A stretch of 64,000 nucleotides of DNA from a bacterium. Its GTDB lineage: Bacteria; Patescibacteriota; Minisyncoccia; Phycocordibacterales; UBA918. Below are positions 50,186 through 64,000 of this stretch, in pieces. Made by a program: the position numbers and the translations under genes. The notes under the pieces are model-generated. The model saw nothing but the letters and a program-made list of their open reading frames with translations. It was not told the DNA's origin and ran no database searches. The stretch is taken from the NCBI GenBank assembly GCA_043719295.1, contig JAYSUD010000007.1, positions 891 to 64,890 on the forward strand, written 5' to 3'. Within the stretch, counting starts at the first letter, position 1, and the number at the start of each line of letters is the position of its first letter.

Positions 50186-51454
50186 CTATGCAATTTTAAT
50201 CTTAACGAGTTGCTCCACGCGCCGTATATCAGCAAGTAATTTTGAACGATCTGCATTATATAAATAAAGCAAAAATACTGCTCTCCCCCCTTTCCGTGCA
50301 AAAGTTGCTCTGTCACCAATTTTTTTATTGACTTTTATTTCGTAAAAAGATTCTAACTGCTCAATTTTCTTAATTCCTTTCATCTCAGTAATAACTCCTT
50401 CTTTTGGCAGGAACCATTTCATGTACACACTATTTCCAGTACATTTCTTTGGAATAATTGGTTTTCTTGGGATTCGTATGAGAATATCGTTTAAATAATG
50501 TTCGATACCGCAACTGAGGTTATAGATAGTATCTCGCGCACCTCCCGTTCGTGGACCCACTTCAATTACTTTCCACTCAGTATCAATTTTCATAAGTTCC
50601 GTATGGGCAGTGGTACTTCGTAATGCCAGTGCATGAATTGCAGTTTCAGTGACAGACTGTGCTTTTTTAACCGTATCACCTTTCAAGATTGTTGGTGTCA
50701 TCTGCGTATATCCATAAAAATCATGATGTCCAATATCTTTTCCAGTTTTTACTCGTACTAACGGCAAGTGATACACGGTGCCACGTGAATTTACATAACT
50801 ATCAATTGAGTACATGTCTCCTTCCATATACTCTTCTGCAATCACTTTCGGCTCTTCCATTCGCTTATCCTTTTCATACGCTGTTTTAAGTTTTCTAAAA
50901 CAAGTTGAGACAGCTTGCTTGAGATCATCTTCGTGGTAACAGATGCTTACAAATAAACTACCTGACATACTCGCAGGTTTTACAATCATTGGAAATCCAA
51001 TTTTTGTGACTACTCTTAGACGCTCAGCAGCAGTTGCATCTTTCACTTTAGTGAATTTCGGAGTTATCTTCGGATCATACAACTTGAAACGTTTTCGCAT
51101 CTCATACTTATCGGTCGCCCAACGTAACGACTCACTTGTTGGAGTTCGAAGATACGGCACACAGGGTACAATTCTTGCAAATCGAGCAATATGCTCTTCA
51201 CTACGGCAAGATATCGCTAAAAGCTCATCCTCAAAAGGTAAGAGTGCTTCACTTATTTTTTCAGGTTTTGAAAAATCTACTTTGATTAAAATATCATGCT
51301 GAGGCACCTTATAGACAACAGGATATTTTATATCCTGAATGAGCATGATGCGAAATGGTGTCCCGTGTTTTTTACCATACGCGCGAATATCACCAACAGA
51401 ATTGGGTTTTAAACCACCAACAAAAGCAATGATATTTTTATGTTTTTTGCTCAT
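50186..51454 (-). CDS. ATP-grasp domain enzyme (L-amino-acid ligase/carboxylate-amine ligase-like, ~420 aa)
   Basis: pre-ATP-grasp + ATP-grasp pattern: …GFPMIVKPASMSGS…, …VIAEEYMEGDMYSIDSYV…, …ELMKIDTEWKVIEVGPRTGG…. Confidence 0.65.
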   Translation of the reverse strand: MSKKHKNIIAFVGGLKPNSVGDIRAYGKKHGTPFRIMLIQDIKYPVVYKVPQHDILIKVDFSKPEKISEALLPFEDELLAISCRSEEHIARFARIVPCVPYLRTPTSESLRWATDKYEMRKRFKLYDPKITPKFTKVKDATAAERLRVVTKIGFPMIVKPASMSGSLFVSICYHEDDLKQAVSTCFRKLKTAYEKDKRMEEPKVIAEEYMEGDMYSIDSYVNSRGTVYHLPLVRVKTGKDIGHHDFYGYTQMTPTILKGDTVKKAQSVTETAIHALALRSTTAHTELMKIDTEWKVIEVGPRTGGARDTIYNLSCGIEHYLNDILIRIPRKPIIPKKCTGNSVYMKWFLPKEGVITEMKGIKKIEQLESFYEIKVNKKIGDRATFARKGGRAVFLLYLYNADRSKLLADIRRVEQLVKIKIA

Positions 51455-51634
51455 ATCTAATTATAAAATAAGGTGCACTTCGGTCTGTATACCAGAAATA
51501 CTGAGGAATGTAGAATTTGTGCACTGAAAGCATACTACATAACCTAAAATTTGCACTAGCTCAATATAGACCATTCAAGCAAAGATATCTAACGCTACTG
51601 AGTTTTTTATAGAAAAGTGTGTTATAAAGCTCCC

Positions 51635-52588
51635 ATGTCTGATGCACACAAACTAAGTATTGAAGTCTTAAAAGAAATTGCAGAGTCGCTTTCATATACG
51701 ACAAAATATCTTCAAAGCAAAGGAACTGCAGAGCGTCTTTTGATCTCTAACGGTAAAAAGATGTATATTGCAAACAGTACACATTTTGGATTTTACCCAG
51801 AAGTTCAAAGGTGGCAGCAACATCTTTTTGACAGCAAAATCTTAACCCAAGAGCTTTTAACCATGCTCGGGTATACAACTATAGTATCTTTCACTGCATA
51901 CTTTAAAGAGTACAACTCCTTGCGTGAACTTAATAGTGCGGTTGTAAACCATATTGAAAAATATCCTGTTATTGTAAAACCTGAACAAGGTGCACGAGGA
52001 AACAACATTACCATTGCAGTAAACAAAACCGCTGTCTTAGAGCAAGTTAAAGCACTCTACGCAATGAAGAAAAGCCTCCTCATACAACCAATTCATGCAT
52101 ATGATGAGTATCGTATTTTAGTTATTAATGGAAACATCGAAGTCATCCACATGAAACAATTAAACCATGTGGTTGGCGATGGAGTACAAACCATTCAAAA
52201 GCTTCTTCATAAAAAACAAAAAGGTGAAAAGGATGACACCTTTATAAAACTTGAATTAAAAAAAAGAGGGCTAAGCCTCCAGTCAATTCTTTCTAAGGAT
52301 GACACATTTTTAAGTCACCTCACTCGCTTCAGTTCTCCAAATGAATACTATCAGTCAAAAAAATTCCCTAAAGATGTGGTCACTTGGGCAAAAAAACTTT
52401 CGCTCGACATATCAGTCCCTACTATAGGAATCGACATCTTTGCCCCGTATGGACTAAGCGATACAAATTCATACATAATCATTGAACTTAATGCCAATCC
52501 CGCTTTTGAATATATCAACAAGCGGTATAATGACAGTCTTAAAGTAAAAGAAATTGCGACAAAATTCCTCACCCATTATTTTAAATAA
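51635..52588 (+). CDS. ATP-grasp ligase, RimK/glutathione-synthetase-like
   Basis: YPVIVKPEQGARGNNITIA, YDEYRILVINGNIEVIH, …ELNANPAF… (RimK-like blocks). Confidence 0.6.
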   Translation: MSDAHKLSIEVLKEIAESLSYTTKYLQSKGTAERLLISNGKKMYIANSTHFGFYPEVQRWQQHLFDSKILTQELLTMLGYTTIVSFTAYFKEYNSLRELNSAVVNHIEKYPVIVKPEQGARGNNITIAVNKTAVLEQVKALYAMKKSLLIQPIHAYDEYRILVINGNIEVIHMKQLNHVVGDGVQTIQKLLHKKQKGEKDDTFIKLELKKRGLSLQSILSKDDTFLSHLTRFSSPNEYYQSKKFPKDVVTWAKKLSLDISVPTIGIDIFAPYGLSDTNSYIIIELNANPAFEYINKRYNDSLKVKEIATKFLTHYFK

Positions 52589-52594
52589 CTAGCT

Positions 52595-53461
52595 ATGAAA
52601 AAAATTATTTTACTTAACGGTGGCAGTAGAACGCGTCGGGCATTCAACGAAGGAGTTGGTGATGCAAAGTTTATACCGCTTCGAACCAAAGGAATGATAG
52701 TGCACATTAACAAAGATCAGGGCGTTGCCTTTATATACAAAAATGACAAAGTAGATTTTACAGATTCATTTGTGTTTACTCGGCTTCGTGCAAATGATGC
52801 TCATTTTTGCGGAATTTTATATGAACACCTAAAGGCACTTGGCGTTCCCGCATTAGATCCTATCAATCTTTCATTTAAATTGTCAGAAGAAAAGATATCG
52901 CAGATGCCACGCCTTGCACGTGCGCACATACAAATTCCAGCAACAATAATTGCACAAGAGGAGTCATACGAATCTAACAAAGAGTACATACAAAAGCACA
53001 TAACCTTTCCTTTGGTATACAAAACAGATGGTAGCCAAGGTAATGCGGTATTTAAAATTAACTCTGAGATAGAGCTTGAAGCAAAAATAAAAATTAAAAA
53101 GAAAAATGAGCTTTTTATACTTCAAGAACTAATACCAAACACATTTGATACACGCACTATTGTTGCATTTGGTACGGTACTTGGTTCTATAAAACGAAGT
53201 GCCCAAAACGGAAACTTTTTAAACAACGTCGCACAAGGTGGACTTGTTTCAGCTTACGAACTAACTGATACTGAGAAAGAAGTGGCACTTTTGGCATCAA
53301 AAATAAATGGTATTGATTTTGGAGGCGTTGATATCATCCATACAGAACGCGGCCCTATTGTACTTGAAGTAAATAAGGCACCTCAAATCACAGGCTTTGA
53401 AAAAATTCATGGAGAGAACTTTGTTTTTAGGACAATCGCTCAAATGCTAGAAAAGATGTAA
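52595..53461 (+). CDS. ATP-grasp ligase, RimK-like (second tandem copy)
   Basis: FPLVYKTDGSQGNAVFKI, …TRTIVAFGTVLGSIKRS…, GGVDIIHTERGPIVLEVNKAPQ; 7 nt after previous gene. Confidence 0.65.
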   Translation: MKKIILLNGGSRTRRAFNEGVGDAKFIPLRTKGMIVHINKDQGVAFIYKNDKVDFTDSFVFTRLRANDAHFCGILYEHLKALGVPALDPINLSFKLSEEKISQMPRLARAHIQIPATIIAQEESYESNKEYIQKHITFPLVYKTDGSQGNAVFKINSEIELEAKIKIKKKNELFILQELIPNTFDTRTIVAFGTVLGSIKRSAQNGNFLNNVAQGGLVSAYELTDTEKEVALLASKINGIDFGGVDIIHTERGPIVLEVNKAPQITGFEKIHGENFVFRTIAQMLEKM

Positions 53462-53506: not shown

Positions 53507-54190
53507 TTATAGTCCAGGGATTCCAAACTCAACATTGCTTGCAGGTGCTTCTGTCCCCACCTCTACTTCACCAACTCCTAGTGCCGATTCAATTTTTTCA
53601 ATAAACTCTGGTACAGTTTTGAACTCTAGACGTTCACCATTTAAAAAGAAAGTTGGTGTCCCAGTAAGTCCTTTTTCTCGGGCCTCATTAAATTGTGAAC
53701 TCACATGATCGGAAATGAGAGATGCCCGCATATGCTGTTTAAAGAGATCAATATCAAGACCAATTTCTTCTGCATACTTCACAAAGAAAGCTTGTGGATT
53801 GGGAGATTTTGACCATGTTGCTTGATTTTCAAACAACTTGTCATGCATTTCCCAAAACTTATCTTGCTGTCCTGCTGCTTCAGTTGCTTTTGCTGCAGGG
53901 ATTGCGAATTTGTGGATACTTGAGAGTGGGAATTGTTTAAACTCAAATGCCATTTGATCTTTATACTTTTCGTAGACTTCAGAAACAATTGGGTAAAACT
54001 CACCACATGCTGGACATTCAAAATCCGCATATTCAGTTAAGACAACCTTAGAATCTACATTACCTCGAATGTGATTCTCAATCACCACCCCTTCATTTGC
54101 TTTTTCGCCTGCGTAACTTGCATACCAATACGATACACCTATAAGCAACAAAGCTACTCCAATAATTATTTTCCACATGTGATTTTTCAT
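53507..54190 (-). CDS. DsbA-family thiol:disulfide oxidoreductase (BdbD-like), membrane-anchored
   Basis: TEYADFECPACGEFYP (CPxC in thioredoxin fold), GTPTFFLNG cis-Pro loop region. Confidence 0.8.
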   Translation of the reverse strand: MKNHMWKIIIGVALLLIGVSYWYASYAGEKANEGVVIENHIRGNVDSKVVLTEYADFECPACGEFYPIVSEVYEKYKDQMAFEFKQFPLSSIHKFAIPAAKATEAAGQQDKFWEMHDKLFENQATWSKSPNPQAFFVKYAEEIGLDIDLFKQHMRASLISDHVSSQFNEAREKGLTGTPTFFLNGERLEFKTVPEFIEKIESALGVGEVEVGTEAPASNVEFGIPGL

Positions 54191-54386: not shown

Positions 54387-54914
54387 CTATTGGACTATAA
54401 GTTTCCCAACCATCCCACTAGTACGATGACTACCGACTGAACAATAGTATTCATAGGTTCCTTTTTTATCTGCTACAAACGTTGCGGAAGTCTTCACTCC
54501 TGGCTGTACACGCTTTGTAGCAACGGCAAATTCATCGATAACAACGTCATGGAACCCATCAGTACTTTCAAAATTGATAGTTACTGTATCGCCTTCTTTG
54601 ACTACAATTTCTTCAACATCATATCCAAAGTTGACCCCCTTTACCGTGAACACTTGTGCAGTAGGGTCAAGAGTGACTGATGGTTGTTTTACTGCATCTT
54701 TTGGTACCACAATAGATTGCTCAGTGTTTTGATCTTCATTTTGCATCGCTTCAACATCTGAATTTTGCATCACCGTACCATCTGGCATCAGATGAGAATC
54801 TGAAGGTACAACTATAGGAGTCTCTGTTTGAGTCTTCGAATAATATTGCGCAAATGCGAAGTATCCTCCCCCTCCTATCAAAAGCAACGCCAGAATGATA
54901 TATAGGTATTTCAT
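54387..54914 (-). CDS. Cupredoxin (plastocyanin/azurin-like type-1 blue copper protein), secreted/anchored
   Basis: …FHDV… (His) and C-terminal YEYYCSVGSHRTSGMVGKLIV (Cys-x4-His-x4-Met ligand set); N-terminal signal/anchor. Confidence 0.7.
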   Translation of the reverse strand: MKYLYIILALLLIGGGGYFAFAQYYSKTQTETPIVVPSDSHLMPDGTVMQNSDVEAMQNEDQNTEQSIVVPKDAVKQPSVTLDPTAQVFTVKGVNFGYDVEEIVVKEGDTVTINFESTDGFHDVVIDEFAVATKRVQPGVKTSATFVADKKGTYEYYCSVGSHRTSGMVGKLIVQ

Positions 54915-55131: not shown

Positions 55132-56604
55132 CTATACAATATCGCCAATCTCTTTAGCTATAACAGTCTCAGCCTCATCAATATTTTTACGAAGCCGTTT
55201 AAGAATCTTCGCCTCGGCTTGTGTAAGCTTTCTTTTTTTACTTGTTTTTTCAAGTGTTGCAATATCTTCCAATAAATCAGTACGTAAAAGTTCAAACGCT
55301 TTATGTGTCATAGCTTTCGCTTCAGCAACTTCTTTGGCAACATGTCGACGCAAGCCACCAAATGCTTTCCAAGTAGCGAAGAGTACCCCACAAAGAAGTA
55401 CCACAAGCGCCAAAAATGGTATGACAATTGAAAGTATCATAATAACAAAGTCACCTTTTTGTTTAATACCCCCATTTAAAGTTTCATCATTTTCTTCAAG
55501 TATCACCGACTTATCTATAACAGTAAATGATATTTTTGATTCTGTTGTATTACCTGCACCATCAAAAGCTGTAACAGTAAGGACATGAACTCCTTCTTCA
55601 ATCGCTGTAATTTTATATATATGACTTCCATCATCCACAAACGATACTGGTGTTTCTTCGTTTATTTGCACTGTATACGAAGCAATCTTTGAAAGTTCAT
55701 CTTCAGCTTCAAAGAGAAACGAAAGTGGCGCAACTTCCGTTACTGTAAAAGGTTGTGGTGCTACTGTGTCAACTTGTATTTTATAATGTATTACTTCACT
55801 CCATCCTTGTTGACCTAAAGACTGCACATGAAGGTACGAAGTTCCTTCAGGTAGGTCTTGTATTACTTTAGTTTCTATCGGAGGTTCATACAGTACCGCG
55901 GGTTTTGAACTAGGGTTATCATCAAGGAGCAATCGTAATGCTTTAGTATCACGAACAAACGTAAAGGTAAACATTCCTGTTGTAGTAGAAGACCACCCAT
56001 CTTGTGTATGCGTTGCTGATGTTATTGTCGGTGGAAGTGTTGCGGGACCAGAGGATAGAGATTCTTCTTGTTGCACGCTTTGTACAACAACTTCTGGAAG
56101 TAACGTAAATGAAGCAGTTCCTTTACTTGCAAGAATCTCTGTCCCTTCCCCATCATTTGCAAGTAACGAAGCTGAAGAAAATGAAAGTGAGGAAGCTCCT
56201 TGTGATTTTACCCTAAATGTCAGATTAAGAACCTTCCCTTGTGATCCCTTAAATCCTGGATTAAGAACAATGCCCTCAAAGTTCACTGTTCCTTTAGTAT
56301 TTGAAAATGAAGGTTCTTGAACCCACAAAGACATAATCGACTGGTTCTTTGAAATACTTATAACCTCGAGTTTGTCTTGAGGGTAGGACACAACACCAGA
56401 AACAGCGTTAATAGAAGATTCACCACTTCCTGTATACACACCAACAGTAAATGTTGAACCTTGAGCATAAGAACCTGTTGTTGGAGAAAATGTTAACGTT
56501 GCCGCTAGAGTAACTCCCACTTGAACGAAAAAAAGAAAAATTACAAATGTGAACGTACAGAAAAAGTTCGCCGATATATAAAATATGTTACAAGAAGAAC
56601 GCAC
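55132..56604 (-). CDS. Cohesin-like domain surface protein with Ig-like middle region, C-terminal TM anchor and cytoplasmic coiled-coil tail
   Basis: N-terminal LTFSPTTGSYAQGSTFTVGVYTGSG…INAVSGVVSYPQDKLEVISI… fits cohesin beta-sandwich pattern; TM FVIMILSIVIPFLALVVLLCGVLFATW. Confidence 0.5.
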   Translation of the reverse strand: MRSSCNIFYISANFFCTFTFVIFLFFVQVGVTLAATLTFSPTTGSYAQGSTFTVGVYTGSGESSINAVSGVVSYPQDKLEVISISKNQSIMSLWVQEPSFSNTKGTVNFEGIVLNPGFKGSQGKVLNLTFRVKSQGASSLSFSSASLLANDGEGTEILASKGTASFTLLPEVVVQSVQQEESLSSGPATLPPTITSATHTQDGWSSTTTGMFTFTFVRDTKALRLLLDDNPSSKPAVLYEPPIETKVIQDLPEGTSYLHVQSLGQQGWSEVIHYKIQVDTVAPQPFTVTEVAPLSFLFEAEDELSKIASYTVQINEETPVSFVDDGSHIYKITAIEEGVHVLTVTAFDGAGNTTESKISFTVIDKSVILEENDETLNGGIKQKGDFVIMILSIVIPFLALVVLLCGVLFATWKAFGGLRRHVAKEVAEAKAMTHKAFELLRTDLLEDIATLEKTSKKRKLTQAEAKILKRLRKNIDEAETVIAKEIGDIV

Positions 56605-57419
56605 AGTACAACTATAATACCAATTGTTTTTTCATTTTGATACCACAGTATATCTTTTTGTGGATAGAAAATGACCACACGTTCATTTTGATTCATGTCT
56701 ATTGCCTTAATAAAGATTTTTTTATTTTGGTTTATATTTTTAATTTTGTATGGACTTTCAGCTTTATGGTACCTGCCAAACAAACCCTCTTTAATTTCAA
56801 AGTGTGAGAGCCCAGAGTTTTTATCTAATGTTGAAAAAACCAAAAACGCATCTCCATCGAACACATCAACGTCGTACTCAACTGACGGTACAAAGAGTTC
56901 TGGCACTTCGTCATCTAGATACACTTTCTTCAGGATTGTTGACTCTCCTTCTTCAACTACCACATGCAAGTTTTGAGAAACGACCACCGCCTCTGAGCCC
57001 AACCCATCGTGCACAAGTACTTGAGAATTTGAAATAGAAATAGTACCTTGTCCTTTTTTTAAGACAGAAAAAGTGAGGTTAACAATCGAGGCGTCTTCTT
57101 GTGTAAATCCCCCTGGAGTAATCCCTGCAAACGATACACTTCCATTGTTGACTCCTTTTGTGTCACGAAGCCAGACTGTCACTACCGAATCCCCTGCATC
57201 ACTTGAAACAAACTCAAGAAGGTCAGGAGGGTATGCAACTTCCAGTTCTACTGCATTAAGTACCTGCTTTTGTGTATCAATACGCACAGAAACTGTCAAA
57301 ACATCCCCAACATGAACACTACTAAAGTCACTCTCAATCTTAAGAAGTGCCCCATACACAGGCATTGTTGCCGCATACCATCCAAACACCACCATACTCC
57401 ATACTAAAAATAATTTCAT
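56541..57419 (-). CDS. Cohesin-like domain surface protein with C-terminal TM anchor
   Basis: LLKIESDFSSVHVGDVLTVSVRIDTQKQVLNAVELEVAYPPDLLEFVSS… (cohesin pattern); TM near C-terminus; alternative start MKLFLVW (57419) avoids overlap with upstream gene. Confidence 0.5.
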   Translation of the reverse strand: MKLFLVWSMVVFGWYAATMPVYGALLKIESDFSSVHVGDVLTVSVRIDTQKQVLNAVELEVAYPPDLLEFVSSDAGDSVVTVWLRDTKGVNNGSVSFAGITPGGFTQEDASIVNLTFSVLKKGQGTISISNSQVLVHDGLGSEAVVVSQNLHVVVEEGESTILKKVYLDDEVPELFVPSVEYDVDVFDGDAFLVFSTLDKNSGLSHFEIKEGLFGRYHKAESPYKIKNINQNKKIFIKAIDMNQNERVVIFYPQKDILWYQNEKTIGIIVVLCVLLVTYFIYRRTFSVRSHL

Positions 57420-57421
57420 AT

Positions 57422-58471
57422 TTATCCAGTCCAATGGAAGGCCATAATACTAAAATCTACAAGATTTATTTTTCCATCGCCGTTAAGATGATTTGTCTCA
57501 CGAATTAAAAAGGATGGATTTAGGGGACGCTGATACCAAAATGCAACAATGGAAAAATCAACTAAGTTTACTCTACAATCTCCATTTAAGTCAGCCTTAG
57601 AAGAACACGTTGGTGGCGTGTTGTTGTATACGTTTTTTGTACCAACTTCAAAAGGATATACTGCACTTTGCGAAGAAATAACAGATTCCAAAGAAGCACG
57701 TGATTTAGCTGTATGTGACCCAAGTTCCAATACTGAAGAATCAAAGCTATGCAAATAGACACCATCTGTATCTGAAGTAGCCTTCACAAAATGCTGTAAC
57801 TCTGAATTTACTTCAATGGTGATTGCTGAAAAAGGAGTACTCTGTCCAAAAAGTACAATGGGCTCACCCTTTTTTACTTCAGTTTTATCACCGGTTAACG
57901 TTGGAGACACAAAAATACTTTCAATTTTTGTCACTACGTTTTTACTTACTGATATTGGAAATGTCAAAAGAGTCGATCGTACTCCTTTACTATCTTCACT
58001 GTAGATGGAAAAAATATACGTACCGGCACTTAAACCTTTTATCAAAACTTGAAACGTTGCATTTTCATCAGCAATAGTTGTTGCTACTACTTGTGCATCT
58101 TTTAAGATTGTAACTTCACTTTTAGGGTATGCGCGACCCTTAAGAACAACTTGTGCCCCCTTAGGAGTACTCCCGCCACTTCCCCCACCCCCACCTGAAG
58201 GTGGTGGCGTAAAAATGCAGGACGTTGTATCTAACAGACATGATGATGTACATGACAAGGTTCCTGAAGTAAATCCCTCTAAAGTACAAGAAGACCCCCC
58301 TAAGTCGGGTCCATCACACTCTTCCGGGCTTTCAATGATGTAATCTCCACATCCTTCAACAATTGCTTCTATAGCAACTGTAGAACTTCCAACTCCCTGA
58401 GCATTTGAATATTGAACTACTATAAAACTTACACAAAGTGATACAAGTATAATGACAGAAGGAGCTTTCAT
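57422..58471 (-). CDS. Secreted protein with N-terminal Cys-rich (Myxococcus-type CxDG…EECDG) repeat, Gly-rich linker, Ig-like domains and C-terminal type I dockerin (two Ca-binding repeats)
   Basis: C-terminus …ADLNGDCRVNLVDFSIVAFWYQRP…NHLNGDGKINLVDFSIMAFHW = duplicated DxNxDGxVNxxD dockerin repeats; N-term EGCGDYIIESPEECDGPDL. Confidence 0.65.
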   Translation of the reverse strand: MKAPSVIILVSLCVSFIVVQYSNAQGVGSSTVAIEAIVEGCGDYIIESPEECDGPDLGGSSCTLEGFTSGTLSCTSSCLLDTTSCIFTPPPSGGGGGSGGSTPKGAQVVLKGRAYPKSEVTILKDAQVVATTIADENATFQVLIKGLSAGTYIFSIYSEDSKGVRSTLLTFPISVSKNVVTKIESIFVSPTLTGDKTEVKKGEPIVLFGQSTPFSAITIEVNSELQHFVKATSDTDGVYLHSFDSSVLELGSHTAKSRASLESVISSQSAVYPFEVGTKNVYNNTPPTCSSKADLNGDCRVNLVDFSIVAFWYQRPLNPSFLIRETNHLNGDGKINLVDFSIMAFHWTG

Positions 58472-58477
58472 TACACA

Positions 58478-59434
58478 TTATTTGTTTGATTTACTTTTTG
58501 AAATAATCCAAGAATTGTATTTCCGGAGACCAAGATAGAGACCCGCAAGAATCACTGCAGAAATTACTAATAACTGCCAAGGAATCAGTACAAAGCGATA
58601 TACGTCAGTAGCAACTTGATTTGTGGCACCATAGGTAACTTTTATGTGTGCACTATAGAGACCAAAGTGAAAATCTGAAAATTGTTCCTTTGCGGTTGCA
58701 AAAAAACTATCTGTTGAAGTAGCAACTACTGTTTGCCCCCACACTGATTCAAATTTGCGTGTGCTATTTGGCAACACACTCCCTTCGTTTACGTTTGCAG
58801 CAAATGTTGTAGCAACTCCTCCAAAAGTGTTTTTAATGGTTATGTCACCAAGTGGTACAACCCGGTCTCCTCCACTATTTGAAAAGCGATACGAAAAAGA
58901 AATAGGAAGTTCAGAAAATATGCGCCCACCATTATTTGCAGCGTACTCACTCAAGCCAGCACTTTCGACAATATCACCTGAGACTCGAAGGAGTATCAGG
59001 ATTCCTAGCTTTCCACCAATTGAAACTTCCCCAGCTTCTTGAGATGCTGGATCTTGTTCTCCTAAGAAAACAGCCGCGAAGTAACCTCCTGGTTCAGCGT
59101 CTTTGGGGATAGTAATTGTATAGGGTACTATTGTTTTCTGTCCTGGTTCTAGTGTCACTTGGTTTTGTGCTCGTAGCCAAGTAGCAAGCCCGTCTGTAGC
59201 GCCTATAAAACGAGGTGAGCCGGTATCTCCCGCAGGCTCGAAATTTTCAAATGAAGTAAAAAGTAGCTTTGGTATGTTCTGCTCATTAATAAGCTCAATT
59301 TCACCTCGAAGTGTCTGCCCTGCGTCTCCTGTAACCTCAACTTTAACTGGTGAAGCAGTAAGTGCAAATGCTTGGCTTGCAGAGAAAAAAAGCGTTATTG
59401 CCAATCCCAACATCACTAACCGAGTTAATTTCAT
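58478..59434 (-). CDS. Cell-surface protein with signal peptide, beta-sandwich ectodomain and C-terminal TM anchor + Lys-rich tail (DUF916-like?)
   Basis: Signal peptide LGLAITLFFSASQAFA; C-terminal WQLLVISAVILAGLYLGLRKYNSWIISKSKSNK. Confidence 0.4.
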   Translation of the reverse strand: MKLTRLVMLGLAITLFFSASQAFALTASPVKVEVTGDAGQTLRGEIELINEQNIPKLLFTSFENFEPAGDTGSPRFIGATDGLATWLRAQNQVTLEPGQKTIVPYTITIPKDAEPGGYFAAVFLGEQDPASQEAGEVSIGGKLGILILLRVSGDIVESAGLSEYAANNGGRIFSELPISFSYRFSNSGGDRVVPLGDITIKNTFGGVATTFAANVNEGSVLPNSTRKFESVWGQTVVATSTDSFFATAKEQFSDFHFGLYSAHIKVTYGATNQVATDVYRFVLIPWQLLVISAVILAGLYLGLRKYNSWIISKSKSNK

Positions 59435-59472: not shown

Positions 59473-60540
59473 TTAAAAGTTTGCAGTAGCCACGTAGGTC
59501 AAGGTTGATGTGTATGCACCTGCTTCAGTGTTTGAAGTAATGTTTGCAATGTATCTTGCTGAATAGGTTGTGTTTGCTGACGCTCCTGCTGCAGAAGCGA
59601 TTTGGTCAGGGAATGCTGCACTATCAAACGCAAATCCAGCAGCTGCATACGGCACAGCAACAGTTCCAGAACCTCCTGAAGCTGACATACGAACACCAAA
59701 CTGTTCTGTTCCAATACTTGACGCTGTGTTAGCCGCACCTATTGCAGTAATAGTGTTAGCGCCTGAAGTAAGTGTGTTTCCTGCAAGACTCATAGAATAC
59801 CCACTTGCAGCATTGGTCCCCACAATAACGTTATGGGCCTCAACTTCTGTAGCTTGTCCTGAAGCAGTTCCAGATGCAAATCGCGCAGCTCCTGAACCAA
59901 GTGAACCAAAAGAAATAGTGTTATCAGAAATACTAAACGTAATTGATTGAGGCACCGTAGCGGTGATGGCAACCTGGCTGTTTGTTAAGATATTGTTTGT
60001 GATGTCTCCTGTATCACCAAAGGTTCCTGAAACGGTCATTGTATATGAACCAGGTGTAGTTGGGTTAATTGAGTTTGTCCCGTTGTAGGTAATGATCATC
60101 TTATCATTTGCCGCAACAACAGCTGCACCTACGCCATCAGAAGGAGCAGTCAAGGTCAAAATCCGATTCTGTGTTCCTGAGAAAGCTGCTCCCCATGCAG
60201 AAGCACTTGGTGCTGCCGCTAGTGTTTCAGTGCTTTCAAGTCCCGTTGATGCACCATGGGTAAAAGTTACTGTACCAATAGTCTTACTTGTAAAGTTGTA
60301 GTCAGAAGGGAATGTAAGAATGATTGTATCTGTATTGTCTCCTGCACCGGTTGGTGTAACAAAACGAATAGCATGAGTTGATGTCGCGCTTATGGTCTGA
60401 TTTGACATTGTATCTGAAACTGCAGTTATCGACGCTGCATACGCAAAATTAAACGAAAACAATGAGACAAGCATCGCAAACAGAAGTGCAAAACTCGTTG
60501 CTTTCAAGGCTTGAGTATTAAAAATTAAAGATGCGGTCAT
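59473..60540 (-). CDS. Secreted Thr/Ser/Ala/Gly-rich beta-rich surface protein (putative fibre/adhesin subunit)
   Basis: Likely start MTASLIFNTQ… with signal peptide …SLFSFNFAYA|AS; low-complexity T/S/A/G-rich body; no catalytic motifs. Confidence 0.4.
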   Translation of the reverse strand: MTASLIFNTQALKATSFALLFAMLVSLFSFNFAYAASITAVSDTMSNQTISATSTHAIRFVTPTGAGDNTDTIILTFPSDYNFTSKTIGTVTFTHGASTGLESTETLAAAPSASAWGAAFSGTQNRILTLTAPSDGVGAAVVAANDKMIITYNGTNSINPTTPGSYTMTVSGTFGDTGDITNNILTNSQVAITATVPQSITFSISDNTISFGSLGSGAARFASGTASGQATEVEAHNVIVGTNAASGYSMSLAGNTLTSGANTITAIGAANTASSIGTEQFGVRMSASGGSGTVAVPYAAAGFAFDSAAFPDQIASAAGASANTTYSARYIANITSNTEAGAYTSTLTYVATANF

Positions 60541-60696
60541 GGTAAATAGTGTAAATAGAATTAAATAATGGAACGTGTAACGCACCGTGCACAAGACACA
60601 GCTGTAACTCCCTTTAGTATACCCCTAATTCACAACACAAATACGTCAGCCTGTGAAGAACTTTCAACGTTAAGCGGACCTTATTTTAAAAAGCTA

Positions 60697-61155
60697 TCAA
60701 AATTGTAGATATGTTGTAAACATAAACGGTACGTTGTTAACTTCATAATGCATATGTATCTGTGTTGGAACGTTTCCAAGAGTTGGAACCACCGTCATGT
60801 GCATTTCACTAAGTACGAACGCGTCTCCCGTAAGAACGACTTCATCACTTCCTGTCCTTTTAAAGTACACTTTTCCATCAAAGAAACGAATCGTAAGAGG
60901 ACTTTCTGAGTTCAAATCGGGTCGCGAAATTACTAGTGTATAGGGAGTAGACAGCGTTACTGCTGTGGCACCCTGAAGTGCCCAATGTATTTTCCTCTGT
61001 ATAAACATCCCTTCTTCTTGTATAGCGATATCAGTACGATTGTTTTCAAAACTCTGTAATAGCTCATAGACAGTAATGAGTGCACCTGTCATGAGTACAC
61101 CAAAAAGAGCAATATAGATAAGTGTCTCAAGTAATGTGAATCCGTGTTTGCTCAT
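60697..61155 (-). CDS. Type IV pilin/pseudopilin (prepilin-type N-terminal cleavage/methylation domain)
   Basis: N-terminus MSKHGFTLLETLIYIALFGVLM (G|FTLLE class III signal). Confidence 0.7.
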   Translation of the reverse strand: MSKHGFTLLETLIYIALFGVLMTGALITVYELLQSFENNRTDIAIQEEGMFIQRKIHWALQGATAVTLSTPYTLVISRPDLNSESPLTIRFFDGKVYFKRTGSDEVVLTGDAFVLSEMHMTVVPTLGNVPTQIHMHYEVNNVPFMFTTYLQF

Positions 61156-62288
61156 GGTGAATAAATGACCGTTAACTTTTGTGGCTGGTTTGCAAACTGA
61201 TTTATTGTGTACAAATAATCCGCACTATTGTCTATTCCTAATGGTGCTAGATGCGGAATATTCATAAATGATATTCTGCCTGCATTTATAAGACTCGTGC
61301 TCCAGGTGCTTTTGCTTGCATTCCAAATCTGGAATTCAAAACCGCTTTTACTTGTTCCGAGATACAAAAGCTGGCCCGAACCACCAAGTGAATGTACATC
61401 AGCACCCACTTCACTGGTGGCTTTAGGAGTCCCGACACCTTCAAGTAAAGACAAAATATCAAACATATAGAGCTCGTTACCTCCCCCACTCCTCCGACCA
61501 AGATACAGATCATTCCCTCTGAGATATAGACTTGATGCATCTTCACTCCCTGGCAAATTAAAACTTGCAACTTCAGTTGGAATATCATTGGTAACATCAT
61601 AGATACTTAGTTCCTTAAGTGCAGCACTTGTAGCTAGGTATATATAGCGGCGCATTGTACCCTCGACCATCTGCTCACGAACTACCATGTCGTTTACGGT
61701 ACGATTTAAATTAACTGAAGCTCCAACTATTTCACTGGTAATACTTGGAACGATGATATCAAATAGGTGAAATTCTGGACCTGCTGTTTCTCGCGTGGTG
61801 ACGTAAAGTCTATTACCGTAAACTTGAATCCGCCATCCTTGCGGAAACGAGCTGCCGATAGTGATACCATGTAACGTTTTTTGGAGGACAGGAATCGGTT
61901 CTTCTCCATCAGTGACGTCAACTATCGCGAGTTGGGAGGTAGATGCGTGTTGCATCATGTATGCATACGTCCTTCCTGTTTTTAAATCTCGAGCAACATC
62001 AATTGCGTTGATTCGTTTTCCATACACCGATGAAGTACCTATTAATATAGGATTTGTACCTACAATTGTTGGTGCGCTGTATATTGAAAGCTGAGGTGAA
62101 GATGATGAGGTTATGTATAGGTAATCCCCAAAGACATCAACTCCAGTTGAGAAAAGAGGAGGTACTATCTCTGAACCTGAAGTTTGAAGTGACCCCAAAA
62201 GCCAATTACCTCCAAGTTCTTTTACTCTGCAGTCCCCTCCTTTTGCAATAATTTCAGTTTGATTTGTGAGATACGTTGGCAACATCAT
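61152..62288 (-). CDS. Beta-propeller protein with LVIVD-like repeats, within pilus gene cluster
   Basis: Recurrent LAIVDVTDG / LSIYDVTND / LYMFDILS / FHLFDIIVP / LYVT / LYLG units. Confidence 0.45.
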   Translation of the reverse strand: MMLPTYLTNQTEIIAKGGDCRVKELGGNWLLGSLQTSGSEIVPPLFSTGVDVFGDYLYITSSSSPQLSIYSAPTIVGTNPILIGTSSVYGKRINAIDVARDLKTGRTYAYMMQHASTSQLAIVDVTDGEEPIPVLQKTLHGITIGSSFPQGWRIQVYGNRLYVTTRETAGPEFHLFDIIVPSITSEIVGASVNLNRTVNDMVVREQMVEGTMRRYIYLATSAALKELSIYDVTNDIPTEVASFNLPGSEDASSLYLRGNDLYLGRRSGGGNELYMFDILSLLEGVGTPKATSEVGADVHSLGGSGQLLYLGTSKSGFEFQIWNASKSTWSTSLINAGRISFMNIPHLAPLGIDNSADYLYTINQFANQPQKLTVIYSP

Positions 62289-62318
62289 GGAAGTGGTCGG
62301 ATATCGTTCTCCAATACG

Positions 62319-62657
62319 TCAGGAAACATTTGTCTCTGCATACTTAAAACAAGAAGAAATGTCTGTAACGGCGTGTTGTAAAAAATAACAAAGTCCCCCA
62401 AGAAGACAGAGCGTGTCAGCAACATCATCAAGAACAGCAAGTGTTTGAAGATCCGTACTTGAGGCACCTTGAAAGTCTTCTAAAGACGAGGCCACAAGAA
62501 GTTCACTTTGCATCTTTGTTTTGTACAATGCCTCTGTGCCGACTTGTGAAGTAATAACCCAGTACTGAGAAGAAATATTTGCCTCTACAGCTCCAACAAT
62601 AATGGTAACCATCAATGCTAACGCGATTACAATTTCAAGAGTACTAAATCCTCGCAT
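62319..62657 (-). CDS. Type IV pilin-like protein (prepilin N-terminal domain)
   Basis: MRGFSTLEIVIALALMVTIIVG (G|FSTLE). Confidence 0.7.
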   Translation of the reverse strand: MRGFSTLEIVIALALMVTIIVGAVEANISSQYWVITSQVGTEALYKTKMQSELLVASSLEDFQGASSTDLQTLAVLDDVADTLCLLGGLCYFLQHAVTDISSCFKYAETNVS

Positions 62658-62663
62658 AAAGTA

Positions 62664-63152
62664 TTAGCGATATATCGCGCCTTCATGATTAATAAAAACA
62701 CCTGTGGTTGCCATACGATTAGTATCTTCAAGGATAATCTGGCCATCGTATGAAGCATTGCCTGACAATTGTTCAAACACAATTTCATTTGGTGACACAC
62801 CATCTATTGTGACGTCATAAGAAGATGCTATGTACGTACGTGATGAGATATCAGAATTTGCCAATGTATGCCCTTCAAATACAACATACCCGCTATACCC
62901 ATTTGGATACAACGCTACACCGTGTTCACTTTGGTTCACATTATTAAGTGCCTTTGTTCTTGCAGTTTGAAGTACTGATATAAGACTATCGCGTTCAGAC
63001 AGAAATGCTGTTCTTTGATACGTATCCGCAGTAAAGAAAAGTGTCGAACCAAGAATCATACTCAAAAGTGTTAACACTACTAAAACTTCAATCAGCGTGA
63101 AGCCATCGTAACTTTTATTTTTGTCACTGGTGTAAGTTTTGCGTAATGCCAT
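62664..63152 (-). CDS. Type IV pilin/pseudopilin
   Basis: Likely start MALRKTYTSDKNKSYDGFTLIEVLVVLTLLSMILG (G|FTLIE); track ORF 62664..63224 has a longer implausible N-terminus. Confidence 0.65.
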   Translation of the reverse strand: MALRKTYTSDKNKSYDGFTLIEVLVVLTLLSMILGSTLFFTADTYQRTAFLSERDSLISVLQTARTKALNNVNQSEHGVALYPNGYSGYVVFEGHTLANSDISSRTYIASSYDVTIDGVSPNEIVFEQLSGNASYDGQIILEDTNRMATTGVFINHEGAIYR

Positions 63153-64000
63153 AAATGGGCGTAATAATCGAAACCGCGATAAACCCAACACATAAACCCA
63201 TAGTGAGCATGAGTATCGGCTCAAGGACGGTTGTTAAATTCTTGGTAGCGTCACGCATATCTGCCTCATATATTTCTGAGATATACTCAAGAGTTGGACC
63301 AAGGTTCCCCGTTAGTTCAGATGCCTTTATCATTTGTATACAAAGCGGAGGAAAAAGTCTCGTGTGCTTTTGAAGACGTGCTGAAAGTAGCTGACCTTGT
63401 ACAACCCCTTTTTGAGCATCTATAAGAACCTCTTTGTATACCAAGTTGTCAGAGCTTAAAGATGCTATGGTAAGTGCCTCAACAATCCACACTTCATGCT
63501 GTAGCAATAGTCCAAGTGTTCGCAACACGTTTGTAAGATTGTAGGACACGTGTAATCGACCAAAAATGGGAATCTTTAAAAGAGCAGAGTCCCGTGCATA
63601 TTTAAATGTGTTGTTTTTACATAACTGGGGATACACAACCACACAAAGGGCAATACTACCTAATAAAATATGCCAATACGATTTCAATAATTCACTTACT
63701 TCAATTACTATGCGAGTTGAAAGTGGTAGATCAATATGTAAGCTACTAAATATGGGAAGGATTTTCGGAAAAATGTATAAAATAAGAAAAAATGTAATAC
63801 CCAGAGTTGCGATAACAATTATTGCTGGGTACACCAATGCGCCAACAATTTGTTTGCGCAATTCTTGTTTTTTCTTGAGTTCTACTGTCACATATTCAAG
63901 ATTTAAAGGAAGCGTGCCTGAAGATTCTCCTACCCGCACCATATTGATACAAAAGACTCCAAAGCTTTTGGGGAACTTTTGCATCGCAAACGACAGTGTT
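63124..64000 (-). CDS. pilC: Type II secretion/type IV pilus assembly platform protein PilC/GspF family, partial (N-terminus beyond window end)
   Basis: GspF-domain blocks …GESSGTLPLNLEYV…, polytopic TM pattern, C-terminal …GFIAVSIITPIYGITQN…; ORF open to window edge. Confidence 0.8.
   Translation of the reverse strand, partial: TLSFAMQKFPKSFGVFCINMVRVGESSGTLPLNLEYVTVELKKKQELRKQIVGALVYPAIIVIATLGITFFLILYIFPKILPIFSSLHIDLPLSTRIVIEVSELLKSYWHILLGSIALCVVVYPQLCKNNTFKYARDSALLKIPIFGRLHVSYNLTNVLRTLGLLLQHEVWIVEALTIASLSSDNLVYKEVLIDAQKGVVQGQLLSARLQKHTRLFPPLCIQMIKASELTGNLGPTLEYISEIYEADMRDATKNLTTVLEPILMLTMGLCVGFIAVSIITPIYGITQNLHQ

Follow-up and report, generated by a model that had tools for sequence, protein, structure and literature searches.

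The 64-kb window analyzed here, the whole stretch of 64,000 nucleotides from a patescibacterial genome (contig JAYSUD010000007.1, assembly GCA_043719295.1; GC content ~40%), carries a minus-strand cassette of five genes that encode a Pam-type pilin, a membrane protein that we call T, a dockerin protein that is secreted (D) and a pair of cohesin proteins anchored in the membrane (c and C). The cassette, in the order pilin, T, D, c, C, is conserved in Paceibacteria-type Patescibacteria. We propose that D, together with c and C, may cap and anchor a Pam-type fiber, and so would be a split equivalent of the anchor protein PamR; we put the probability of this reading at roughly 45%. We are slightly less confident in the fuller proposition that in Paceibacteria a Pam-type pilus is tied to the cytoplasmic membrane by the cohesin-dockerin pair, which would act as a load-bearing joint independent of sortase and usher.

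The five genes are tightly packed (59473-60594 through 55132-56604), with gaps of no more than 38 base pairs (bp) or overlaps. In the direction of transcription the dockerin gene D precedes the cohesin genes c and C. A preliminary description of this DNA had correctly recognized a secreted protein with a duplicated type I dockerin but had placed its gene after those of the cohesin proteins. The genes and their parts are as follows, with lengths in amino acids (aa).

59473-60594, minus strand: secreted Pam-type pilin, a maximal open reading frame (ORF) of 373 aa with a match to NF058581.
58478-59434, minus strand: T, 318 aa, a protein of two beta-sandwich domains between a signal peptide and a C-terminal transmembrane (TM) helix (AlphaFold2 (AF2) model, Foldseek).
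57422-58471, minus strand: D, secreted dockerin protein of 349 aa (ORF, signal peptide, Pfam).
58355-58381, minus strand: mature N-terminal strand of D, residues 31-39, TVAIEAIVE (position-specific scoring matrix (PSSM) of the pilin linker).
58217-58351, minus strand: Cys-rich module of D, C41 to C85, with a CGDx..ExCD motif (family alignment).
57641-58156, minus strand: two tandem immunoglobulin (Ig)/FnIII-like domains of D, residues 106-277 (Big_6, AF2, Foldseek).
57425-57601, minus strand: type I dockerin of D, residues 291-349, with loops DLNGDCRVNLVD and HLNGDGKINLVD (Dockerin_1, profile alignment, AF2).
56541-57434, minus strand: c, cohesin protein of 297 aa, or 292 aa from the probable start at 57419 (Pfam Cohesin).
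57006-57323, minus strand: cohesin domain of c, residues 38-143 (Pfam Cohesin).
55132-56604, minus strand: C, cohesin protein, a maximal ORF of 490 aa whose start is uncertain (Pfam Cohesin).
56128-56478, minus strand: cohesin domain of C, residues 43-159 (Pfam Cohesin).

D has a signal peptide and lacks a membrane anchor; from its N-terminus it comprises the signal peptide, a strand, the Cys module, a Gly-rich linker, the two Ig/FnIII-like domains and the dockerin. We took as type I a dockerin built of two segments of ~22 residues, each with a calcium loop (Asp or Asn at positions 1, 3, 5, 9 and 12) and a helix, and D has two such segments. The window protein itself scores 23.7 bits against Dockerin_1 (PF00404; cut-off 22.9), a marginal match in which a single repeat is aligned. 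All 25 of the aligned family members match this model at E<=0.05 (best E 7e-10), and the profile of the D family spans both repeats (residues 291-348) against solved type I dockerins, namely 2y3n_B (E 9e-4), 5nrm_B, 4fl4_A and 1daq. The five ligands of loop 1 (DLNGDCRVNLVD), D294, N296, D298, N302 and D305, are all present and invariant or nearly so; in loop 2 (HLNGDGKINLVD) ligands 3, 5, 9 and 12 are conserved, with D332 and D339 invariant and N330 usual. A check on the calcium-binding residues, which the preliminary description had proposed, thus found the ligands conserved except at position 1 of loop 2. The AF2 model folds the C-terminus (residues 303-348) into three helices, and in both repeats the dockerin face ('NLVDFSI.AF.W') hardly varies across hundreds of species.

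This dockerin subtype gave 336 matches at E<=1e-10 among 1.84 billion representatives and is almost confined to the C-terminus of proteins of 300-450 aa. A scan for dockerin calcium loops returned only the two loops of D in the six frames of the window, and across all fetched loci every protein with such loops belonged to the D family. Because the subtype is almost confined to D-sized proteins and no other loop-bearing ORF was found, the dockerin looks like a dedicated connector rather than a multi-cargo plug-in.

The Ig-like domains that had been suspected in D are supported by Big_6 matches in 24 of 25 family members and by the AF2 model, whose Ig region has Foldseek matches to SiiE (2yn3), the Fn3 domain of CbhA (3pdd) and Bap (7dm0). 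Models of calcium-stabilized adhesin repeats (NF033510) match 12 of the 25. The Cys-rich module had been called a Myxococcus-type repeat. Its six cysteines are invariant; the repeat models match weakly, with 7/25 members found by TIGR02232 (best E 0.004) and 4/25 by DUF4215, and the D of the window matches neither of them.

Pfam searches with the cohesin and dockerin models, suggested beforehand as a check, placed all three proteins above the curated cut-offs. Against Cohesin (PF00963; cut-off 24.1), c scored 38.2 bits (E 2e-9) and C 26.1 bits (E 1e-5), and each has one C-terminal TM helix, in agreement with the earlier description of two membrane-anchored proteins that begin with a cohesin. 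In c, an N-terminal signal peptide and the cohesin are followed by a second beta domain, the TM helix (269-287) and a short basic tail. C has a signal peptide, the cohesin, Ig-like domains, a TM helix (386-404) and a cytoplasmic tail of ~85 aa; its residues 288-362 score 26.9 bits against Big_13, just below the cut-off of 27, and this model matches 49 of 55 members of the C family. The c-family profile weakly matches 5aoz_A and 5m2o (E 2e-3), solved structures of the cohesin fold, which is a nine-stranded beta-sandwich (jelly roll). Two genomes encode c and C as one fused two-cohesin protein of ~870 aa (L052, 6871-9471; L060, 11014-13629), a Rosetta-stone hint that the two act in one complex.

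The cytoplasmic tail of C (55135-55392, minus strand) holds a conserved, charged helical segment with the consensus R..KE..EAE......F..L..D....I..L.K...KR.LT.EE..I...L...L..AE..I.KEI.DI. Through this segment the assembly on the surface could be connected with something inside the cell.

To describe the conservation of the locus, we fetched 80 D loci and counted synteny over 79 non-redundant, species-level loci, in which genes were identified with our own hidden Markov models (HMMs) built from the window proteins. Immediately after D lies c, or the c-C fusion, in 76 of 77 loci, and C follows within 2.2 kb downstream of D in 65 of 68; these counts indicate that the anchored cohesins and the secreted dockerin protein, paired in the preliminary description, form a dedicated set. 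On the other side, T immediately precedes D in 56/68 loci, and immediately before T there is a Pam-like pilin in 47/49 (a two-domain pilin in 26 and a protein of ~175 aa in 21). A word-index search with D recovered 1929 database homologues, compared with 25 for the 292-aa form of c, the latter called 'hypothetical protein' wherever they were named. The relatives of D come from 427 species-representative genomes, one of them titled Candidatus Microsyncoccus archaeolyticus PMX.50, and are named as Parcubacteria, Paceibacterota or Patescibacteria; an NCBI assembly and a Logan contig each contain an identical D protein. The database names for these proteins amount to 'hypothetical protein' and one 'dockerin type I repeat-containing protein'. 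D is much more conserved than its presumed partners, with a mean column identity of 63% vs 31-36%, and evolution has been much faster in the cohesin proteins.

The type of N-terminal head on D varies with the presence of T. The strand-bearing module outnumbers other heads by 53 to 3 where T is adjacent, and stands at 5 to 7 where it is not (Fisher p 8e-5). In seven loci (L053, L056, L059, L062, L067, L070 and L072) the D gene, of 437-455 aa, has no adjacent T gene; these proteins keep the Gly linker, the two Ig domains and the dockerin, and have the strand and Cys-rich head replaced. The replacement is an FnIII-containing region with 'S.SF/NF...GGG' repeats or, in L053, GW(I/V)NF-type repeats.

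The pilin of the window scores 84.1 bits against the NCBIfam model NF058581, CPR_Pam_pilin_C (cut-off 55), which also matches 33 of 35 aligned members of its family. It has a signal peptide, an N-terminal domain, a linker strand 'SQVAITATV' and the C-terminal Pam pilin domain; an identical contig carries a gene call that starts at 60540 and would give a product of 355 aa. The small secreted proteins (~175 aa) upstream of T in other loci gave essentially nothing with NCBIfam and Pfam, and only profile-profile comparison linked them to the pilin: by hhalign they match its C-terminal domain with 93.9% probability (E 1.6e-7). Loci with such a small pilin have T in a short form that retains the N-terminal domain and the TM helix. 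We also noted that large secreted proteins of 542-953 aa precede small pilins (L046, 5835-8696; L038, 2-1630; L017, 5140-7248; L012, 804-3065) and carry a pilin-linker-like strand (e.g., SVAVSGTVA) ~36 residues from the C-terminus. They may serve the same fiber as tip adhesins or as strand donors.

In the AF2 model of T (pLDDT 84), two beta-sandwich domains are preceded by a signal peptide and followed by a C-terminal TM helix. Its top Foldseek matches are Enterococcus WxLIP (9i1y, E 6e-12; 9i25), RbmA (4kkp) and the chaperone-usher chaperones CfaA (6k73) and CsuC (6fqa), with E-values of 1e-9 to 6e-12 and yet modest TM-scores of 0.4-0.55. The latter two kinds of fold, RbmA and chaperone-usher chaperone, are those assigned to PamR and to PamC/PamD, respectively. 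The T-family profile matches EfmWxLIP1 weakly (E 0.08). Given the modest TM-scores, and since no NCBIfam Pam model matches T or its family, T can be assigned at the fold level only, as a candidate pilin chaperone or holder in the fold class of PamC/PamD, WxLIP or RbmA.

The link between D and the pilin comes from a conserved strand just after the signal-peptide cleavage site of D, TVAIEAIV here and TVEITATVP in many relatives, which resembles the strand found in the pilin just ahead of its C-terminal domain (QVAITATVP, QVAVTATVD). A PSSM of the pilin linker found its best match at residues 20-39 of D in 47 of 83 D proteins, where position alone predicts ~6% (binomial p ~1e-35). In the opposite direction, the 9-mer of D, scored with BLOSUM62, matched best to the strand before the C-terminal domain in 18 of 26 cognate two-domain pilins, and to the mature N-terminal strand in ~14 of 23 small pilins. 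Residues 20-41 of D are unstructured in the monomer model (AF2 pLDDT <50); the donor strands of chaperone-usher pilins are likewise unstructured in the monomer. D is without any pilin acceptor domain.

The Pam pilus was described in 2026 by cryo-electron microscopy of filaments of Candidatus Mycosynbacter amalyticus (Troman et al., bioRxiv 10.64898/2026.03.03.709456). In that account its pilins PamA/B/E have an N-terminal beta-sandwich, a donated linker strand and a truncated Ig-like C-terminal domain that accepts the strand of a neighbor; PamC and PamD are PapD/FimC-like chaperones with a C-terminal TM helix, and PamT is the tip pilin. PamR, an RbmA-like protein with a TM helix, has an N-terminal strand predicted to enter the last pilin, ending and anchoring the fiber. 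The same preprint located Pam mainly in Saccharimonadia and Microgenomatia, and cohesin and dockerin go unmentioned in it (bioRxiv 10.64898/2026.03.03.709456).

On our model, Sec would export the pilins, T would hold them, and they would polymerize through donor-strand exchange as described for Pam pili. D, which has a donor-like strand and no acceptor domain, would then fill the groove of the pilin nearest the cell with that strand and so cap and end the fiber at its base. At the other end of D, the calcium-dependent dockerin would engage the cohesin of c, of C or of both, whose TM helices would keep the assembly in the membrane. D with c and C would in this way form a two-piece, non-covalent counterpart of the PamR anchor and terminator of Candidatus Mycosynbacter, and in lineages without T and pilin the same stalk, dockerin and cohesin socket would display another N-terminal head.

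Several points weigh against this model. The cohesins of c and C are divergent in sequence: at E<=0.01, Pfam Cohesin is detected in 17 of 66 members of the c family (26%) and in 28 of 55 of the C family (51%), and the match of the c-family profile to structures in the PDB covers only the first ~55 residues (E ~1e-3). The presumed pairing with D is drawn from domain identity and synteny alone, and position 1 of dockerin loop 2 is variable, being His here and Asp in some relatives. The strand shared by D and the pilin is rich in Thr, Val and Ala and of low complexity; 7.8% of unrelated ORFs attain the median PSSM score of D somewhere, and the similarity of D to its cognate pilin (19.0) is barely higher than to non-cognate ones (17.3), a difference so small that we claim no co-evolution. 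The strand of D could also bind T rather than the pilin. T, as noted, matches no Pam model in NCBIfam, and the Pam model on which our reading builds is a preprint with an AlphaFold-based assembly. The counts are also inflated by relatedness among the sequences. Finally, the D-c-C trio is found in loci that have neither T nor a pilin, where D bears other N-terminal heads, so the socket does not depend on a pilus.

That last observation supports the main rival explanation, close to the display pictured in the preliminary description, in which D is a stand-alone adhesin cargo. Its N-terminal head, disulfide-rich in this window, would bind a host ligand, the membrane cohesins would hold it at the surface, and the pilus genes would be co-regulated neighbors serving the same attachment task. 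Where T and pilin are missing, D, c and C stay together and the head is swapped for the FnIII-containing region or GW-type repeats on a constant stalk and dockerin, and the NF033510 matches in 12/25 D proteins also suit an adhesin. Stand-alone display does not account for the pilin (47/49) and T (56/68) directly upstream in most loci, for a D strand that maps to the linker or N-terminal strand of the pilin far above chance, or for the correlation of head type with the presence of T, and we consider it rather unlikely. Since the cohesin socket can clearly be reused, capping of a fiber and display of an adhesin may both hold, in different lineages. Another explanation is that there is no binding at all between the cohesin-like and the dockerin-like modules, and that three envelope proteins have separate roles such as calcium-dependent binding of carbohydrate or cell wall. 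Many non-cellulosomal dockerins are suspected of such roles; Peer et al. are said to have reported in 2009 that non-cellulosomal cohesin and dockerin modules are widespread and that their partners are mostly unknown, and the divergence of the cohesins here fits the same idea. The constant gene arrangement makes it improbable, since a single dockerin gene is joined by two cohesin genes in unchanged order (76/77 and 65/68), as do the complementary topologies of an unanchored D and anchored c and C, and the almost invariant dockerin faces, as expected for a fixed protein partner.

The preliminary description had suggested yet another partner, a type IV pilus; on this reading the module would be an accessory of PilC and the minor pilins that decorates or anchors their pilus. 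A PilC (T2SSF) gene and three prepilin-type genes do lie upstream on the same strand (60697-63984):

63124-63984, minus strand: PilC (T2SSF) gene, truncated at the window end.
62664-63224, 62319-62657 and 60697-61155, minus strand: three prepilin-type genes.
61152-62288, minus strand: an ORF of 378 aa amid the prepilin genes.

The cassette had been placed directly beside these genes; in fact two genes, those of T (58478-59434) and the pilin (59473-60594), separate D from them, and both belong to the Pam-type cassette. Of 43 related loci that extend 6.5 kb or more upstream, 0 have PilC or prepilin genes nearby, and these genes are absent even from relatives whose D is 67-69% identical. On this synteny we take the type IV pilus genes for chance neighbors, reject that pilus as a partner, and regard an accessory role of the module in it as very improbable. 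Cooperation with a pilus as such was probably a sound suggestion, with a Pam-type pilus in place of the type IV pilus and a part more specific than decoration.

Three other identifications were tried and set aside. A cellulosome would have several carbohydrate-active enzymes with dockerins on a multi-cohesin scaffoldin, usually with a carbohydrate-binding module; D is the single family with dockerin loops in the window and the fetched loci, and the GH1 and GH42-like ORFs of the window have glycoside-hydrolase Pfam matches only, in agreement with the preliminary description, which had excluded a cellulosome. The 'essential dockerin protein' of Southlakia, SEML1_0315, is encoded by 2784 bp (~927 aa) flanked by the genes of an alpha/beta hydrolase and a tRNA (Cell 2023, PMC10633639), and no similar cassette accompanies it. 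Membership in a WxL/WxLIP cluster was dismissed as well, as T and the pilins have no WxL (PF13731), DUF916 or DUF3324 match in Pfam and the likeness of T lies in the fold only.

Around the cassette we made some further observations. Immediately downstream, two minus-strand genes (53507-54190 and 54387-54914) encode a DsbA/thioredoxin-like protein tethered to the membrane and a cupredoxin that is secreted. A DsbA would suit the six-Cys module of D; this neighborhood is not conserved, with DsbA matches in 3 other loci only. The 378-aa ORF amid the prepilin genes overlaps the next pilin gene by 4 bp at its 3' end, shows no TM segment or signal-peptide-like stretch in a hydrophobicity scan, and has no near-cut-off match in Pfam or NCBIfam (Kelch_2, E 0.12; choice_anch_B, E 0.001). 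At 50186-53461, three neighboring ATP-grasp genes (ATP-grasp_4 with LAL_C2, a weak RimK-like match, and a RimK-like match at E 1e-30) suggest a peptide- or amino-acid-ligase cluster. A scan of the cassette for promoters and terminators was uninformative, as shuffled sequence yielded more sites.

Non-cellulosomal cohesin and dockerin modules, and the Pam pilins of the candidate phyla radiation (CPR; 2026 preprint, NCBIfam June 2026), are already known. Full-text searches of the literature on dockerin or cohesin in CPR, Patescibacteria or Paceibacteria did not turn up a description of this cassette. For the host attachment of ultrasmall episymbiotic bacteria, it offers a testable anchor candidate in the largest class of Patescibacteria, at a point where the anchoring and termination of the Pam pilus have so far been model-based.

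Compared with the cellulosomal type I pairs of Acetivibrio/Clostridium thermocellum and Bacteroides cellulosolvens (2y3n, 1daq, 5nrm), D shares a dockerin of two near-symmetric, EF-hand-like repeats whose calcium ligands are conserved. The cohesins likewise belong to PF00963, and a secreted dockerin protein is combined with cohesin proteins that anchor it. The differences are equally clear. Here there are no glycoside hydrolases, carbohydrate-binding modules or multi-cohesin enzyme scaffoldins, and a single family of dockerin cargo; the cohesins are anchored by their own TM helices and not by S-layer homology domains or sortase; and the host belongs to an ultrasmall episymbiont lineage. Positions 10-11 of the repeat, which are Ser-Thr in cellulosomal type I dockerins, are Leu-Val in both repeats of D.

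With the Pam pilus the cassette has in common the NF058581 pilin domain and the predicted Sec export of its components; the modeled T has matches of PapD/RbmA-like fold with modest scores, and on our model D would play the part proposed for PamR. It differs in that the anchor would be split into a soluble adaptor and cohesin membrane proteins. In addition, many cassettes use single-domain pilins of ~175 aa, and T falls outside the NCBIfam Pam models.

The WxL clusters of Firmicutes provide the best structural match to T in WxLIP, which has the architecture DUF916-DUF3324-TM (Hassan et al. 2023, PMC10599100; PDB 9i1y, 9i25). Both proteins have two Ig-like domains and a C-terminal TM helix, and both are encoded beside a small and a large secreted protein that are proposed to be held by strand insertion. 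Sequence similarity is negligible (E 0.08), and by Pfam the pilins have no WxL domain. WxL clusters are not known to contain cohesin or dockerin proteins. The fold that links T to WxLIP and to chaperone-usher chaperones hints at strand complementation as a principle common to Pam-type pili, WxL clusters and chaperone-usher systems, one at work in the surface assemblies of monoderms.

A further parallel is with the non-cellulosomal modules, which likewise place a cohesin and a dockerin in an organism without cellulosomal enzymes. In this cassette, unlike those, the partners lie side by side in a fixed stoichiometry and order, in hundreds of species and in the context of a pilus cassette. If our reading is correct, the cohesin-dockerin interaction would gain a defined non-cellulosomal job with both partners identified, whereas most such dockerins are without a known partner.

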